Both the position numbers and the translations under genes were made by a program. Source: an uncultured Candidatus Saccharibacteria bacterium (GTDB taxonomy: Bacteria > Patescibacteriota > Minisyncoccia > Minisyncoccales > GWA2-38-27). Taken from it: a DNA stretch of 64,000 nucleotides. The stretch lies in contig CAYZKD010000001.1 of NCBI GenBank assembly GCA_964479375.1, positions 7,540 to 71,539 of the forward strand, read 5' to 3'. Numbering within the stretch: position 1 is the stretch's first letter; the number at the start of each line of letters is the position of its first letter. A model generated the notes under the pieces. It was not told where the DNA came from. It was given only the letters and a program-made list of their open reading frames with translations, and ran no database searches. Shown in pieces: positions 31,474 through 36,502 of this stretch.

Positions 31474-32878
31474 GCAACTGACCATAAGAGAGATAAGCCG
31501 TGGCTTGAAGAATAAGAATTTTTCTGCTGTTGACTTGACTAAAGAATATTTTTCTAAGATAAAAAAAGAAGACAATCAGATATCATCTTTTCTGACTCTC
31601 ACTGAAGACCTCGCCGAAGAACAGGCCAAAAAAATAGACGAAAGAATATCTTTTGGCAAAGACATTCCTTCTCTAGCAGGGGTTCCCTTGGCCGTAAAGG
31701 ACAATATTTTAGTAAAGGGGGCCAGAACAACCTGTGCTTCCAAGATGTTGGAAAAGTATAATCCTCCATATAATGCTACCTGTATTGATAAATTAAGAAA
31801 AAGTGGCGCTGTTTTTTTGGGTAAAACTAACCTGGACGAGTTTGCAATGGGGGGGTCTACTGAAAATTCCGCTTTTTTCTCTACCAAAAATCCTTACGAC
31901 TTAGAAAGGGTGCCCGGAGGCACTTCTGGGGGATCCGCCGCTGCAGTAGCCGCTGGGTTCTGTCCCTGCGCCTTAGGCTCTGACACAGGAGGCTCCATCA
32001 GGCAGCCTGCTTCTTTCTGCGGGGTAGTGGGCTTAAAGCCCACCTACGGATCAGTCTCCAGGTACGGATTGATTGCTTACGGCTCTTCTTTTGATCAGAT
32101 AGGGCCTATTGCCAAGAACGCTGAAGACGCGGAAATAATCTTTGAAGAGATTTCGGGAAAAGACGACAGGGACTCTACTAGCGTTGTTAGGCCTCCAGCC
32201 GGGCCCCTAAAGGCTATTAATAAAATTCGTATTGGCGTGCCTAACGAATACTTTCAGGAAGGGCTTGGGCCTGAAGTCAAGCAGATAGTGGAGAATAAAA
32301 TAAAAGAGTTTGAAGATCTGGGCGCTGAGGTAGAAAAAATTAATCTGCCTCATACTAAGTACGCAGTACCTGCTTATTATCTGATTGTAGATTCTGAGGC
32401 TTCTACCAACCTGGCCAGGTACGATGGGATAAAATACGGACTTTCCAATAAGAAAGGGGATACGCTAAAAGAGGTTTATTCCGAAACTAGGGGAGAAGGG
32501 TTTGGAAATGAAGTCAAAAGAAGGATTATGCTGGGAACTTACGCTCTCTCTGCCGGGTATTACGAGGCCTACTACCTGAAGGCTCAAAAGACAAGAACTC
32601 TTATCGCTCAGGATTTTTACAAAGCGTTTGATAAAGTAGACGTTATAATGACTCCGGTAGCCCCGACCCCTCCTTTTAAATTGGGAGAGAAAATAGCAGA
32701 TCCTCTGGCGATGTATCTTTGTGATGTCTTTACTGCACCCGTTAATTTGGCGGGTCTGCCCGCTCTTTCCCTTCCTGCTGGATTTTCCGGGAAACTGCCC
32801 GTGGGCCTCCAGATTATTGGCAAACCCTTTGAAGAGACAACAATTTTTAATATTGCCAAACAGGCCGAGAATCAATGA
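31457..32878 (+). CDS. gatA: Asp/Glu-tRNA(Asn/Gln) amidotransferase subunit A (amidase)
   Basis: Amidase signature GGSSGGSAAAVAAG...GSDTGGSIRQPASFCGVVGLKPTYG and the Ser-cisSer-Lys triad context. Confidence 0.95.
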   Translation: MMMKVEQLTIREISRGLKNKNFSAVDLTKEYFSKIKKEDNQISSFLTLTEDLAEEQAKKIDERISFGKDIPSLAGVPLAVKDNILVKGARTTCASKMLEKYNPPYNATCIDKLRKSGAVFLGKTNLDEFAMGGSTENSAFFSTKNPYDLERVPGGTSGGSAAAVAAGFCPCALGSDTGGSIRQPASFCGVVGLKPTYGSVSRYGLIAYGSSFDQIGPIAKNAEDAEIIFEEISGKDDRDSTSVVRPPAGPLKAINKIRIGVPNEYFQEGLGPEVKQIVENKIKEFEDLGAEVEKINLPHTKYAVPAYYLIVDSEASTNLARYDGIKYGLSNKKGDTLKEVYSETRGEGFGNEVKRRIMLGTYALSAGYYEAYYLKAQKTRTLIAQDFYKAFDKVDVIMTPVAPTPPFKLGEKIADPLAMYLCDVFTAPVNLAGLPALSLPAGFSGKLPVGLQIIGKPFEETTIFNIAKQAENQ

Positions 32879-33432
32879 TGGATTTTATTGATATAATCGC
32901 ATCCTTTTTTTTCAATATATTTTCTCAGAGAACGCTTAGCTTTGTGCTGAATCCCGAGTTTGGGGGATGGCTCTTGGTTATTAGGAATGCTTTTCTCTTT
33001 GTTTCAGGAATACTTATTTTGCTTTCCTTGTTTCTTCTGGGTGCTTCTGGCTGGTTGAGGAAACGGTACACAGAGGATTTATATGAGGCGACCGCCTACA
33101 AGCCCTATGGCGCCAAAAAGTTCGAGAAAGAATGGAAAAGGATATCTGCAAGACTAGATAGCGGAGAAGGGGCGGGTTACAAGTTGGCCGTTATCGAAGC
33201 GGATGATTTATTAGAAGAAAGATTGAGAAGCATGGGGTACAAAGGGGGAAAGATGCAGGATCTTTTAGAACAGGTTCCAGAGACTATTGTCCCCAATGTT
33301 GAGGAGGTAAGCCGGGTGCACGAATTGCGCAACAATATAGTGCATGACCCCGACTACAGACTGGAGTTAGAAGAAGCAAATAAGGCAGTGGCGGTTTTCG
33401 AAAGGGCGTTACAAGAGTTGGGAGCGATATAA
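32875..33432 (+). CDS. hypothetical membrane protein (two TM helices, cytoplasmic C-domain)
   Basis: Translationally coupled to gatA. Two hydrophobic helices. No known motif. Confidence 0.5.
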   Translation: MMDFIDIIASFFFNIFSQRTLSFVLNPEFGGWLLVIRNAFLFVSGILILLSLFLLGASGWLRKRYTEDLYEATAYKPYGAKKFEKEWKRISARLDSGEGAGYKLAVIEADDLLEERLRSMGYKGGKMQDLLEQVPETIVPNVEEVSRVHELRNNIVHDPDYRLELEEANKAVAVFERALQELGAI

Positions 33433-33436
33433 ATTC

Positions 33437-33465
33437 TTGATTTCCTTTCCAATTTAGTATATAAT
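33437..33465 (+). promoter_or_regulatory. sigma-70-type promoter for the tRNA cluster
   Basis: TTGATT, 17 nt, TATAAT, with the -10 ending 12 nt before the first tRNA nucleotide (33478). Confidence 0.55.
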
Positions 33466-33477
33466 TCCAATTGACAT

Positions 33478-33790
33478 CGCGGGGTGGAGAAGTAGTATCT
33501 CACGAGGCCCATGCATTAGTGTGGCCAAAGACGGAAACGCCTTTGGAAAAACTCCTGAAATTGCTGGAAAACCATAAGAGTTTCTCTTGCTACAACGCAA
33601 TCTGTAAAGATAGGCGTGAATGTTTAAAAAAAGAGGAAATTTGGCAACCAGCAGCCAAGCCTCCTGATCGGAGGAAGGTTCAGAGACTATAATAGGAGCT
33701 CCCCTTTGGGGAGATGGGATAGTCCATTCCATTTGGAAACAGATGGTATTTAAGAACCTCGAGACGCGGGTGCAATTCCCGCCCCCGCAA
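33478..33790 (+). tRNA. initiator tRNA-fMet(CAT) interrupted by a group I intron (exons 33478-33512 and 33755-33790)
   Basis: The 5' exon CGCGGGGUGGAGA...CGAGGCCCAU and 3' exon AACCUCGAGACGCGGGUGCAAUUCCCGCCCCCGCAA rebuild a 71-nt tRNA. It shows the bacterial-initiator hallmarks: C1xA72 mismatch, the CGCGGGG/CCCCGCAA acceptor (identical to E. coli tRNA-fMet), anticodon stem CGAGG/CCUCG, anticodon CAU. Confidence 0.75.
33513..33754 (+). ncRNA. group I self-splicing intron (242 nt) in the tRNA-fMet anticodon loop
   Basis: The 5' splice site follows U (P1 pairing CCAU with GUGG at 33521-33524) and the intron ends with G (omega G at 33754). Core elements: P AATTGCTGGAAA (33562-33573), Q AACCAGCAGC (33647-33656) with a compensatory change relative to P, R GTTCAGAGACTATAA (33678-33692), S GATAGTCC (33718-33725). 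Confidence 0.7.
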
Positions 33791-33987
33791 CATTTTTATC
33801 TGCGACTACAAGGAATTCGAAATAACAATTCACCAAAACATTTTGGTAAAATTAAAAATAAAAAGAACCGTAACCATTTCTCGGTTTATCACATAGGAAA
33901 ACACTTATTACAAAAATTAGGAAGTCAGCATTTTTATTATGAAACCAAAGGGCTGATTGGGCAATCGGGGAGAGCAGGGAGGTCCCG

Positions 33988-34058
33988 GCCGGGGAGTAGA
34001 ATGGCATCTAAGGCCGTCTCATAAGCGGTTAACGTGGGTTCGATTCCCGCCCCCGGCA
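33988..34058 (+). tRNA. tRNA with CAT anticodon (elongator Met or lysidine-Ile2), slightly non-canonical D-arm
   Basis: Acceptor GCCGGGG/CCCCGGC, T-arm GTGGG-TTCGATT-CCCGC, anticodon loop CTCATAA. The D-loop is short (6 nt) and the anticodon stem has wobble pairs. The antisense ORF reads GAGIEPT, which is typical over a tRNA. Confidence 0.55.
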
Positions 34059-34064
34059 TATAAT

Positions 34065-34139
34065 GCGGACGTAGCTTAGCTGGCTTAAAGCGCCGCCCTG
34101 TCACGGCGGAGATCGTGGGTTCAAATCCCATCGTCCGCG
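34065..34139 (+). tRNA. tRNA-Asp(GTC)
   Basis: GCGGACG-TA-GCTTAGCTGGCTTAAAGCG-CCGCC-CTGTCAC-GGCGG-AGATC-GTGGG-TTCAAAT-CCCAT-CGTCCGC-G. The cloverleaf is regular and CCA is not encoded. Confidence 0.9.
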
Positions 34140-34352
34140 CAATAATCTGACTTTCTGGAAGTTTTTCTAAATTTTCGGCGGCGGGGCAAAGCGCCGCCCA
34201 ATGTGTTTTGAGGGAGAAATTCGTCTCGTTCGGCGTGCCTTGCGGTTTGCCAAAATGAGGTTCAACCCGAAAATTTTCTTGGCAGTAGCCTTTTTATCTA
34301 AAAGGCTGCTCGCGGGCGAAGATCCTTCCTTCAAATCTCCTTCATTAATGTA

Positions 34353-34380
34353 GGAGGCCCGTCCTCCCACATTTATTTTG
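34353..34380 (+). repeat. hairpin direct repeat, copy 1 (GGAGGCCCGTCCTCCCACATTTATTT)
   Basis: Perfect stem GGGAGG/CCTCCC with loop CCCGT, followed by ACATTTATTTT. An identical 26-mer recurs at 35399-35424, so the pair brackets the CDS 34444-35190. Confidence 0.75.
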
Positions 34381-34443
34381 GAAGCCTTGTTTTTTTGTTT
34401 TTATGTCCTATTATAAGAAAATAGAAGTTAATATCACGAGCCT

Positions 34444-35190
34444 ATGTTTAAATATCTAAATCGTAGCATATCCATGCCAATAGCAATAGGAATTATTGTT
34501 ATTTTAATAATTTTAGTTGGAGGAGGGACATTTATTTACCAGTATTATTGGCCCAAAACAGAACCGCAACCAATATCTTTTTCAAACGATTGTAATGAAT
34601 TAATAAGACAAGTAAGCAATTTAGTTGAAGAAGCAAATTATTGTAATGCGGATTCCGATTGTACGATATCAACCGAAACTACAAAATTCTGCGGTTGTTG
34701 GAGTTTAATTAACAAAAATGCCGATTTGTCAAAAATAAAAGAGGGAAATGAGAAATATAATAAATTAAATTGCCCGATACTTATGTGCGCTGAGTGTATG
34801 CTAACCCCGCAGCAAGAGGATATAGAATGTGTAAATCATAAGTGCGTTGTATCTTCTTCTGGCATCGTTAAGTTGGGGGATATAGTTTCAAACCCGTCCC
34901 AATATAGTAATAAAACTGTAATCGTTGAAGGAAAATACGGGGGCTGGAAACCCACAGCCGATATTCCCTGCAATGAGGCGAATATAGCAATTCTAACAAA
35001 AAGCGATACGCTAATTTATGATGGCACCGATTGTTTGTTTATGTCAGCCATCGGGGGGGTTAATATTTTATCCGAACCGAAAAATCTAAACCCAGTAGAA
35101 AACTCCATAAATATTGGCCAAGATATTAAGGTAGAAGCAGTAGTTAACTTGATCAACGGAAAACCAATCCTAGGGCTGATAAACCAATAA
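34444..35190 (+). CDS. cysteine-rich secreted or membrane-anchored protein, AT-rich (putative horizontally acquired cargo)
   Basis: N-terminal signal anchor (MPIAIGIIVILIILVGGG). There are 14 Cys including CNADSDC, CGC, CPILMCAEC and CVNHKC. Codon usage is markedly more AT-rich than neighbouring genes. Confidence 0.6.
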   Translation: MFKYLNRSISMPIAIGIIVILIILVGGGTFIYQYYWPKTEPQPISFSNDCNELIRQVSNLVEEANYCNADSDCTISTETTKFCGCWSLINKNADLSKIKEGNEKYNKLNCPILMCAECMLTPQQEDIECVNHKCVVSSSGIVKLGDIVSNPSQYSNKTVIVEGKYGGWKPTADIPCNEANIAILTKSDTLIYDGTDCLFMSAIGGVNILSEPKNLNPVENSINIGQDIKVEAVVNLINGKPILGLINQ

Positions 35191-35398
35191 ACGACTCTAA
35201 TAATAAAGCCGAATAAAAAAGAAAATCAAATGTTTCGAAAATAAAATTTTTTAGCGGCGGGGCGGGACACCTAAAATTTTATGTTGGGGTTTTCTATAAA
35301 AAAGGTTCTAACTTGGCCGTAAAGACGCGCAGAGTTTTAATATTAGAATCCAGATTCCATTGTGCCGGTTCATATGGCATTATCCAAAAAAATGTGGG

Positions 35399-35424
35399 AG
35401 GCCCGTCCTCCCACATTTATTTGT
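35399..35424 (+). repeat. hairpin direct repeat, copy 2, followed by a second related hairpin (GGAGGTTCGTCCTCC)
   Basis: Identical to 34355-34380. The adjacent hairpin at 35428-35442 has the same stem with a different loop. Confidence 0.75.
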
Positions 35425-35467
35425 GGAGGTTCGTCCTCCGCGGAAATTTTTGGTATAAAAAAATCCC

Positions 35468-35499
35468 TCGGTGTTGTTTGCCCGAGGGATTTAGCGTTG
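35468..35499 (+). terminator. strong hairpin (11-bp stem AAATCCCTCGG / CCGAGGGATTT)
   Basis: Perfect 11-bp inverted repeat with a 10-nt loop, preceded by an A-run and followed by TTTAG. A possible bidirectional terminator bounding the island. Confidence 0.45.
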
Positions 35500-35782
35500 G
35501 TCACGGAGGATGCATGATTGTCCTTTCTTGAGTTGGACGCTCTCACAGAGAAGTGGAGGTGTCGAGGTCGCCGGCGGTCACAAGATCTTGCGGTGACTGA
35601 GCTGGCACTGACGCACAATCATAGGATTCTCCTTAAAAAGGGTTCTCGTGGAACTAACGCAAGGTACTGAGAATATATTATCATATGTATTCATTTTTGT
35701 CAATACCGAAGTTGTTGACAGATAAATGATTTGAGGGTACAAAGAAGGGGCAGGCTCTTTAACAATAAGGAAAGGATAACAA

Positions 35783-36502
35783 ATGGTACCGGCAGACAAA
35801 GAGGCGTTACTTAACGCTGATCCGATTGAATTTGAAGACATGGATCTTTCTTCGGCGATGGTTCTTCAATGGTTCAGCATTTTGGATGCCGGCTGGATCC
35901 ACGACAATAATCCCAAGCATCCTCACGCCAAGTTGACATCCGGCAAGTGTAGCAATGGATTCTTCGACTGCCTCCGGGTCCTTCGTCATCCTAACCTTAA
36001 CGAAATTTTGGCTAAGCAGCTCGCAGCCAAATTAAAAGATCAAGGGATTTCTGAAAGGGATGTTGATTGGGTCGTCGGATCTCCTTATGCCGGCATAACC
36101 TTTTCCTACGAGGTAGCCAAAGATCTCTGCGCTGTTCATGGCTTTGCGGAGAAACAGCTTTCTTCTGGGGGGAGGAAGATGGTCTGGCCCAGAAGCAGTA
36201 TGGCTATTCCTTCTGGCGCTCGTGTTCTTCAGGTTGAAGAACTGATTACAACAAGCAAGACCTTTCAAAAGGTAAGGAAGGCCATAGAAGAAGGAAATCA
36301 GGAGTCGGTTGAGTTCCTTCCTGTTGTGGGTACTCTTATTCACCGGCCCTCTCGCTTGCCGGCTGAATATGACGGCAGAAGGGTTGTCGCCGTGGTCGAA
36401 AAGGAAGTCTGGGCCGCAGATCCCGGGAACTGTCCTCTTTGCCGTCAAGGCTCTGAGAGACTGGAGCCCAAAGTTGACTGGAAGAAACTGACCAAACCAT
36501 AA
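35783..36502 (+). CDS. phosphoribosyltransferase-family protein (type I PRTase fold, OPRTase-like)
   Basis: PRPP-binding-like motif VLQVEELITTSKTF (acidic residues followed by a T/S-rich loop) and an OPRT-like DWVVGSPYAGITFSYEVA. The C-terminus has CPLC. Assignment is to the fold only. Confidence 0.55.
   Translation: MVPADKEALLNADPIEFEDMDLSSAMVLQWFSILDAGWIHDNNPKHPHAKLTSGKCSNGFFDCLRVLRHPNLNEILAKQLAAKLKDQGISERDVDWVVGSPYAGITFSYEVAKDLCAVHGFAEKQLSSGGRKMVWPRSSMAIPSGARVLQVEELITTSKTFQKVRKAIEEGNQESVEFLPVVGTLIHRPSRLPAEYDGRRVVAVVEKEVWAADPGNCPLCRQGSERLEPKVDWKKLTKP

Follow-up and report, generated by a model that had tools for sequence, protein, structure and literature searches.

A split initiator-type tRNA gene and its junction

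The stretch of DNA analysed here ("the window", 64 kb from the genome of an uncultured Candidatus Saccharibacteria bacterium of the Patescibacteria, or Candidate Phyla Radiation, CPR) carries on its forward strand, at positions 33478-33790, an initiator-type tRNA(CAU) gene that is split between tRNA positions 36 and 37. A first reading of the letters alone, to which we refer as the sequence-only reading, had proposed that two segments lying 242 nucleotides (nt) apart rebuild an initiator-type tRNA(CAT) and that the sequence between them is a group I intron in the anticodon loop. Both proposals hold, and the coordinates given for the two segments were right. The 5' exon (Table 1) has the anticodon C34-A35-U36 as its 3' end, with C33 at window position 33509, and the 3' exon, which includes the T-loop UGCAAUU (33771-33777, with G55 at 33772), does not encode CCA. 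Joined in silico, the exons yield 71 nt that ARAGORN accepts as a tRNA-Met(CAT) of 71/72 nt with a clean cloverleaf; in its default mode the same program misses the split gene and finds only the Met and Asp tRNA genes downstream of it. An Rfam scan matches the group I intron model RF00028 (Intron_gpI) to positions 33503-33746 over the full length of the model (positions 1-253), scoring 77.9 bits where the gathering score is 50 (E = 4e-18), and homologous introns reach 79.9-85.5 bits.

Relatives of the locus were reached by a homology search with the protein of 185 amino acids (aa) that is encoded directly upstream of the tRNA gene, and the contigs of the homologues were then compared; exact look-ups of two window proteins returned nothing on record. 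The order ProRS-MreB-GatC-GatA-185-aa protein-tRNA is conserved. The tRNA gene lies about 45 nt past the gene for the 185-aa protein and is intronless in L003/L004 (GCA_964493085.1) and in L005 (ERZ10759774), and L001/L002 (GCA_964468405.1) has an intron of 243 nt at the same site as the window, which matches RF00028 with 84.8 and 79.9 bits.

With the intron length kept constant, the junction can be moved along the anticodon loop by as much as 5 nt, and among the eight possible junctions 36/37 alone yields both a U at position -1 and a G as the final intron nucleotide (omega-G). Independently of any model, the junction is fixed by the intronless relatives. The syntenic gene in L003/L004 and L005 reads CGCGGGGTGGAGAAGTAGTATCTCACGAGGCCCATAACCTCGgGACGCGGGTGCAATTCCCGCCCCCGCAA, which equals the joined exons of the window at 70 of 71 bases; the sole mismatch is one variable-loop base, and the 5' half of the gene shows no differences from the window 5' exon. 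Because the intronless orthologues read in this way, the junction is placed at U36-A37 and C33 is placed in the mature tRNA. The agreement of the predicted junction with the orthologues is far beyond chance.

Structure of the intron and covariation with its exon

The helices of the intron were assigned by hand on the window sequence, with the Rfam alignment as a guide, and tested by explicit pair counting in MAFFT alignments of two sets of homologues: A1, with 11 sequences from genome assemblies, and A2, with 82 sequences, including 71 metagenome introns that were chosen by requiring omega-G (a G before the 3'-exon AA). The P1-P9 structure is 96.2% paired in A1, where double changes occur in 29 of 76 pairs; with the P5 extension included, it is 95.4% paired in A2, with compensatory double changes in 66 of 92 pairs. 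None of 500 shuffles of A2 attains any of five measures, and when the 3' partners are shifted by 1-3 columns the pairing falls to 37-45%.

Helix P1 is formed between the last nucleotides of the 5' exon and an internal guide (Table 1). The U at the 5' splice site, for which the sequence-only reading had likewise named a GUGG partner, makes a wobble pair (U36 at 33512 with G33521) that is U.G in 82/82 homologues, and the neighbouring A-U and C-G pairs are equally invariant. The helix is extended within the intron by 2 base pairs (bp; 33513-14 with 33519-20) closed by an AUUA loop. The fourth pair of P1, which joins tRNA position 33 to the guide, is the one that varies: it is U-A in 50 and C-G in 32 of the 82 sequences, with no exceptions. 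This covariation of position 33 with the guide base is direct evidence that P1 forms and is under selection, which we take to mean that the intron is being kept as a functional ribozyme. Directly 5' of the guide, 72/82 sequences have a U, and a P10 of 1-2 bp with the 3'-exon AA is possible.

Most other helices are likewise documented by compensatory changes (Table 1). P5 bears an extension, consisting of P5a, P5b with a GUAA tetraloop and an A-rich strand, that is found in about half of the homologues and shows compensatory changes in 8/8 pairs of P5a and 7/8 pairs of P5b. One pair of P4 appears in A2 as U-A, U.G or a C/A mismatch, the rest being invariant. P7, the expected guanosine-binding helix, is invariant in 82/82 and forms a pseudoknot with P3. 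The two pairs of core elements that the sequence-only reading had called P/Q and R/S do pair with each other, as P4 and P7 (GACTAT, 33685-33690, with ATAGTC, 33719-33724), respectively. Only 3 nt (33691-33693) part P7 from P3', so the P7.1/P7.2 hairpins that mark subgroup IA at this place are absent. The terminal G named in the same reading was confirmed as omega-G, a G preceding the 3'-exon AA in 11/11 fully recovered genome-derived introns. No homing endonuclease open reading frame (ORF) was found in the 242 nt, which offer no room for one.

Lineage-specific hairpin insertions of up to about 90 nt occur in the intron family (A2). They lie in the P1 loop (L086, L108, L141, L147, L165, L169, L182, L191), between J3/4 and P4 (L087, L113, L141, L144) and in P6 (L123/L185), and by these alignments the periphery of the ribozyme appears to be modular, with a quick turnover.

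Table 1. Features of the split tRNA gene and its immediate surroundings (window coordinates; compensatory changes counted in A2)
Feature	Position	Strand	Remarks
Sigma-70-like promoter, putative	33437-33465	+	TTGATT-17 nt-TATAAT; 12 nt before tRNA position 1
92-aa ORF	33454-33732	-	No Pfam match
73-aa ORF	33471-33692	+	No Pfam match
5' exon	33478-33512	+	CGCGGGGTGGAGAAGTAGTATCTCACGAGGCCCAT; 35 nt, tRNA positions 1-36, position 17 absent
Group I intron	33513-33754	+	242 nt; starts GCATTAGTGTGG, ends TTTAAG
P1	33509-33524	+	Exon CCAU 33509-33512 with guide GUGG 33521-33524
P2 hairpin	33525-33546	+	GAAA tetraloop; compensatory changes in 7/8 pairs
P3, 5' strand	33552-33556	+	CUCCU, with AGGAG 33694-33698; 100% paired, double changes in 4/5 pairs
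P4, 5' strand	33562-33567	+	TGCTGG, with CCAGCA 33648-33653
P5 and extension	33572-33644	+	P5 is 33572-74 with 33642-44; extension ~67 nt
P6/P6a hairpin	33655-33678	+	P6a: compensatory changes in 5/5 pairs
P7, 5' strand	33683-33690	+	G, bulged A, GACUAU; with AUAGUCC 33719-33725
P8 hairpin	33699-33713	+	Directly after P3'; compensatory changes in 5/6 pairs
P9 hairpin	33729-33746	+	GAAA tetraloop; compensatory changes in 6/7 pairs
Omega-G	33754	+	Final intron nucleotide
3' exon	33755-33790	+	AACCTCGAGACGCGGGTGCAATTCCCGCCCCCGCAA; 36 nt, tRNA positions 37-73
tRNA-Met(CAU)	33988-34058	+	G1-C72 type; downstream of the initiator gene
tRNA-Asp(GUC)	34065-34140	+	Downstream of tRNA-Met
Terminator-like hairpin	34177-34198		Past tRNA-Asp

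Host tRNA, distribution and surroundings

The window tRNA combines a CAU anticodon with the absence of a Watson-Crick pair at 1:72, as in initiators, and the C1xA72 mismatch noted in the sequence-only reading is indeed present. In 67 of 79 homologues of A2 there is no pair at 1/72, and most of the others have a weak U-A pair there. The acceptor stem is identical to that of E. coli tRNA-fMet. A11-U24, which occurs in the window and in 76/82 homologues, is an initiator trait as well (it is found in E. coli tRNA-fMet, elongators having a pyrimidine at 11 and a purine at 24), and the anticodon loop has C32...A38. The anticodon stem departs from the run of three consecutive G-C pairs at 29-41, 30-40 and 31-39: the last two are present as G30-C40 and G31-C39, and 29-41 is A-U in the window and in 72/82 homologues. 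A near-canonical tRNA-fMet can be found among the metagenome members of the family, as in L192, with its GGG/CCC anticodon stem and UUCAAAU T-loop. We conclude from these sequence traits that the interrupted gene is that of an initiator tRNA.

Two other properties of this tRNA are non-canonical. C33, which the sequence-only reading had singled out as unusual and worth checking, stands in place of the near-universal U33 not only here but also in the orthologues without an intron and in 64 tRNA genes of 62 genome assemblies; it is genuine and lineage-wide. According to published comparisons, prokaryotic initiators have U33, C33 being a mark of the initiators of multicellular eukaryotes, and a U33C change abolishes t6A37 formation by E. 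coli TsaBCDE (PMC8887486); our literature search on Patescibacteria and initiator tRNA found nothing on C33. The window also has the D-loop AGUAGUA (33491-33497) together with its T-loop UGCAAUU, as do L003, L005, L008 and L012, with further cases among the loci of the genome and metagenome scans described below. Among 54 distinct intron-bearing tRNAs, D-loops of the type ..AGUA go with T-loops in UGC (31 cases) and those of the type ..GG.. go with UUC (23 cases), with no exceptions. This covariation of the D-loop and T-loop types suggests that an A18/G55 tertiary pair replaces the near-universal G18/U55 (pseudouridine-55), with G19-C56 kept.

The distribution of the gene was followed in one genome per species (representatives of the GTDB) with the 5'-exon signature GAAGTAGTATCTCN6CCCAT, a pattern by whose construction the CCCAUAA loop is present in all of the loci that represent this tRNA. 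Of the 69 loci that matched, 5 are chance matches in unrelated phyla, and the remaining 64 represent this tRNA and belong to 62 metagenome-assembled genomes (MAGs). The MAGs are labelled as Paceibacterota, Nealsonbacteria, Harrisonbacteria, Wolfebacteria, Wildermuthbacteria, Minisyncoccia, Parcubacteria and, generically, Saccharibacteria. In ten of the 62, site 36/37 holds an intron, which measures 190-245 nt in the complete cases; homologous introns at this site include those of L001, L010/L045, L023 and L028. The signature scan found no second, intronless copy with the same 5'-exon signature in these 10 MAGs. A scan of metagenomes with the intron core gave at least 120 loci, and at least 76 among the matches listed are a tRNA(CAU) split at 36/37; these 76 represent 58 distinct spliced sequences, with U33 in 55 and C33 in 21.

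Closely related genomes differ in the presence of the intron. In a tree of GatA the window and L001, both intron-bearing, are sisters (86% identity), with the intronless L003 and L005 just outside, and the intron-bearing L010 pairs with the intronless L008 (70%). On this topology the patchy pattern calls for no fewer than two gains, or else for several precise losses. Taken together, the sequences point to an intron lineage that is specific to initiator tRNAs and their site 36/37; it evolves in step with its exon and is gained or lost sporadically among close relatives.

The intron-core pattern also matches 58 IMG/VR contigs (L202-L259), none of which (0/58) carries the match in a tRNA gene. 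These contigs and at least about 40 metagenome loci have larger group I introns with the same P7 core, GTTCAGAGACTATAAT...TGGNATAGTCC (e.g., L212, L219, L205). Those inspected lie on big phage contigs, where they are inserted in a DnaE-like polymerase gene (at the motif ..SHTLAYSL.ALQEMNLAYKYP..) and contain an ORF of the LAGLIDADG type (..YIIRGIIDGDG..). We set the IMG/VR introns aside as a different lineage, for they have only the P7 core in common with the window intron.

A consensus scan gave 10/12 matches for the TTGATT...TATAAT block, which is kept in L001, L003 and L005 and which we infer from its sequence to function as a promoter; the initiator, Met and Asp tRNAs are probably in one unit, and the order fMet, Met, Asp recurs in L003, L005, L008 and L012. 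The 185-aa protein encoded upstream (32875-33432) is a predicted membrane protein with no Pfam domain, whose homologues (36-74% identity) are syntenic with gatCA and the initiator tRNA across the clade of Patescibacteria to which the window belongs. On the other side, the tRNA-Met of the window is divergent (42.3 bits, compared with 72-73 for the syntenic tRNA of L003 and L005) and is separated from the initiator gene by a spacer of 197 nt (10-26 nt in L003 and L005). Both the Met and the Asp tRNA are absent from L001.

In L003, PheS follows directly after the tRNAs. The window has at this place a 32-nt terminator-like hairpin with a T-run, AATGTrGGAGGCCCGTCCTCCCACATTTATTT, in two copies (34347-34378 and 35391-35422, 1044 nt apart) that bracket a 248-aa ORF (34444-35190, without a Pfam match), and ~590 nt of hairpin-rich non-coding DNA (35191-35782) without an Rfam match; compared with L003, the whole has the look of an inserted block. 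No further RNA gene came to light when 33780-35800 was put through a permissive Rfam scan.

Alternative explanations and comparison with known introns

Two alternatives concern the reading of the locus itself. The junction might lie elsewhere than at 36/37, since an intron of equal length can slide, and ARAGORN in its intron mode (-i) does propose a tRNA-Leu(AAG) with an intron at 31/32. That junction would leave a G at -1 and a U at the intron's 3' end, with both U(-1) and omega-G missing, something that group I chemistry does not allow, and the sequence of the orthologues without an intron is ...GGCCCAUAACC..., with the loop CCCAUAA; the call was rejected on these grounds, and we give a junction elsewhere next to no chance. 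The same sort of tRNA-tool error is described in PMC13011429. The region might otherwise encode a small protein, as the 73-aa and 92-aa frames on the two strands are both open in the window and the former is open in L001 too; the latter observation carries little weight, however, because the identity of L001 is as high as about 93%. Pfam gave no match for either ORF, the sequence is wholly absent from the sister genomes L003 and L005, and the large indels of distant homologues in P5, P6 and P8 preserve helices and not frames. We regard a small protein as almost certainly wrong, and the verdict of the sequence-only reading that the 73-aa ORF is spurious can be upheld, because it lacks a Pfam match, lies inside an RNA that evolves by compensation and consists for the most part of an intron that the sisters do not have.

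The other alternatives concern the nature of the tRNA and the state of the intron. An elongator tRNA-Met or a tRNA-Ile2 (CAU, with lysidine) would make this an example of the classical Ile2 36/37 intron type; the site and the CAU/intron junction are the same as in Ile2.5Ug (10.1101/2020.01.27.920355), and no more than two G-C pairs follow each other in the anticodon stem. This is nevertheless very improbable in view of the C1xA72 mismatch, the rarity and weakness of a 1/72 pair among the homologues, A11-U24 and the C32...A38 loop. A canonical G1-C72 tRNA-Met lies directly downstream in the window and in relatives, and family members such as L192 have the GGG/CCC stem. The acceptor stem, the same as in E. 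coli tRNA-fMet, points in the same direction. The intron might instead be a decaying remnant that no longer splices, in a pseudogene, with an intact initiator gene elsewhere in the genome; only 64 kb of that genome are visible, and the intron is without a homing endonuclease. The helices keep their pairing through compensatory changes, however, and the guide tracks exon position 33, which together argue for selection for splicing. The locus also occupies the syntenic position of the initiator gene in the intronless relatives, its promoter is conserved, and the 10 intron-bearing MAGs have no second copy with the same 5' exon in our scan, so that decay appears highly unlikely.

The explanation that we favour, to which we assign a probability of about 0.9, is that an initiator tRNA gene of the Patescibacteria is interrupted between U36 and A37 by a 242-nt, endonuclease-free group I ribozyme. 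Several points weigh against it. Of the three G-C pairs that bacterial initiators typically have in the anticodon stem, just two are present, and the tRNA score is low (about 52 bits in the intronless orthologues), the latter because the D- and T-loops are unusual. P10 can be only 1-2 bp long, and P7, being invariant, draws its support from conservation instead of covariation. Outside the 64 kb in view there might be another initiator tRNA gene. The structure rests on comparative data, and splicing is inferred by analogy with the established group I mechanism. By that analogy, the TTGATT/TATAAT promoter would drive transcription of the gene, with tRNA-Met and tRNA-Asp downstream probably in the same transcript, and the intron RNA would fold into P1-P9, with the guide GUGG pairing to C33-C34-A35-U36 of the 5' exon and thereby presenting the U.G wobble. 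A free guanosine or guanosine triphosphate (GTP) bound in P7 would attack after U36; the terminal G (33754) would then take the G site and the 5' exon would attack the 3' splice site, whereby U36 is linked to A37. After trimming by RNase P and the addition of CCA, the product would be a tRNA of 71 nt (74 nt with CCA).

The practical consequence is that standard annotation misses the initiator tRNA of the source genome, with ARAGORN reporting none by default and a bogus tRNA-Leu in intron mode, and that the spurious 73-aa ORF can be called in place of the tRNA gene. The same trap exists for at least 10 species-level MAGs and many metagenome contigs. No new mechanism is revealed by the window intron; its interest lies mainly in how cleanly exon and guide covary, in its presence or absence among relatives and in the non-canonical initiator tRNA. 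A gene with and without its intron in sister genomes, a guide that tracks C or U at position 33 and the gain and loss of peripheral elements make up a very clean natural data set for asking how introns that lack an endonuclease can endure, spread or be lost with precision where genomes are extremely reduced, and C33 and the A18/G55 elbow bear on tRNA modification (t6A37, pseudouridine-55) and on initiation in the CPR. A more far-reaching proposal, which we find doubtful though conceivable, is that an uncatalogued fMet-36/37 lineage of the Patescibacteria sits in the sole initiator copy and co-evolves with a non-canonical C33, A18/G55 tRNA, possibly as a guanosine-nucleotide gate. If this were true, all translation initiation would hinge on a ribozyme reaction that requires GTP, and the intron could gate the supply of initiator tRNA by guanosine nucleotide levels.

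The occurrence of the intron in a CPR genome, which the sequence-only reading had considered notable, is not so in itself: about 40% of Patescibacteria genomes have group I introns, the tRNA introns of the phylum were surveyed in 2026 (PMC13011429), and the present type is common in public metagenomes, with its 76 or more loci. The survey of Nakagawa et al. (2026), with 95 complete Patescibacteria genomes, reports 22 intron-containing tRNA genes detected by an Infernal-based protocol (Asn and Asp at 35/36, Met at 33/34, Phe and Tyr), to which its Table 1 adds three divergent tRNA-Thr 36/37 introns found by tFind only; in the parts drawn upon, fMet 36/37 is among neither, and no Patescibacteria tRNA intron is classed as IC (PMC13011429). 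The preprint of Williams distinguishes four classical types of bacterial tRNA introns, all IC3 (Leu 34/35, Arg 36/37, fMet 33/34 and Ile2 36/37), and 17 further combinations of tRNA and site, among which an "fMet.5Ug" may be included (10.1101/2020.01.27.920355).

The cyanobacterial tRNA-fMet introns invoked in the sequence-only reading offer an analogy only, their site being 33/34 and not 36/37 ("fMet.2Ug"; PMC13011429; 10.1101/2020.01.27.920355). These introns, which are also found in Bacteroidota, resemble the window intron in the class of host gene, the anticodon loop and the sporadic distribution. They follow U33, however, whereas the window tRNA has C33; their core is GTGTAGAGACTT/GAAAGTCC, compared with GTTCAGAGACTA/GATAGTCC in the window (PMC13011429 supplement), and some encode a PD-(D/E)XK endonuclease, whereas the window intron has no endonuclease ORF. 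Because site, core and ORF content all differ, the window intron is an independent insertion. The Ile2(CAU) and Arg introns ("Ile2.5Ug", "Arg.5Ug", e.g., that of the Azoarcus pre-tRNA-Ile) lie at the same site, directly 3' of the anticodon. The Ile2 introns likewise have a 5' exon ending in CAU, a GUG-type guide and U.G at the splice site, and both kinds are small and ORF-less, with P1-P9, GNRA tetraloops on P2 and P9 and no P7.1/P7.2. The differences are the host, here an initiator tRNA, and the P5a/P5b extension in about half of the window-intron family.

Within the Patescibacteria, the tRNA-Met(CAU) 33/34 introns of the Microgenomatia are in a CAU tRNA, small, ORF-less and without P7.1/P7.2 (PMC13011429, Table 1/S3), but they follow U33 in another tRNA (U1-A72, with other arms), and nhmmer found no significant match between them and the window-intron family. 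The Asn and Asp 35/36 introns of the same phylum share the GGTTCAGAGACTA / GATAGTCC core with the window intron and, like it, have in most cases no ORF and are overlooked or called wrongly by standard tRNA finders (PMC13011429). When the family was compared by nhmmer with 13 published introns, Patescibacteria Asn introns were the best matches (42.7 and 32.6 bits), with IC3 examples at 24.4 and 21.4 bits. The Asn and Asp introns differ in tRNA and site and in having P7.1/P7.2, the hallmark of subgroup IA, in which most tRNA introns of the Patescibacteria have been placed, and the stretch from P7 to P3' is 30-60 nt long in the published tRNA-Asn introns, as against 3 nt in the window. The cues to a subgroup therefore conflict, with an IC3-like layout, an atypical P5 extension and a core that is nearer to the Asn introns labelled IA. 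The intron is a member of the large family of group I introns in the Patescibacteria, of which it is a good example and no surprise.

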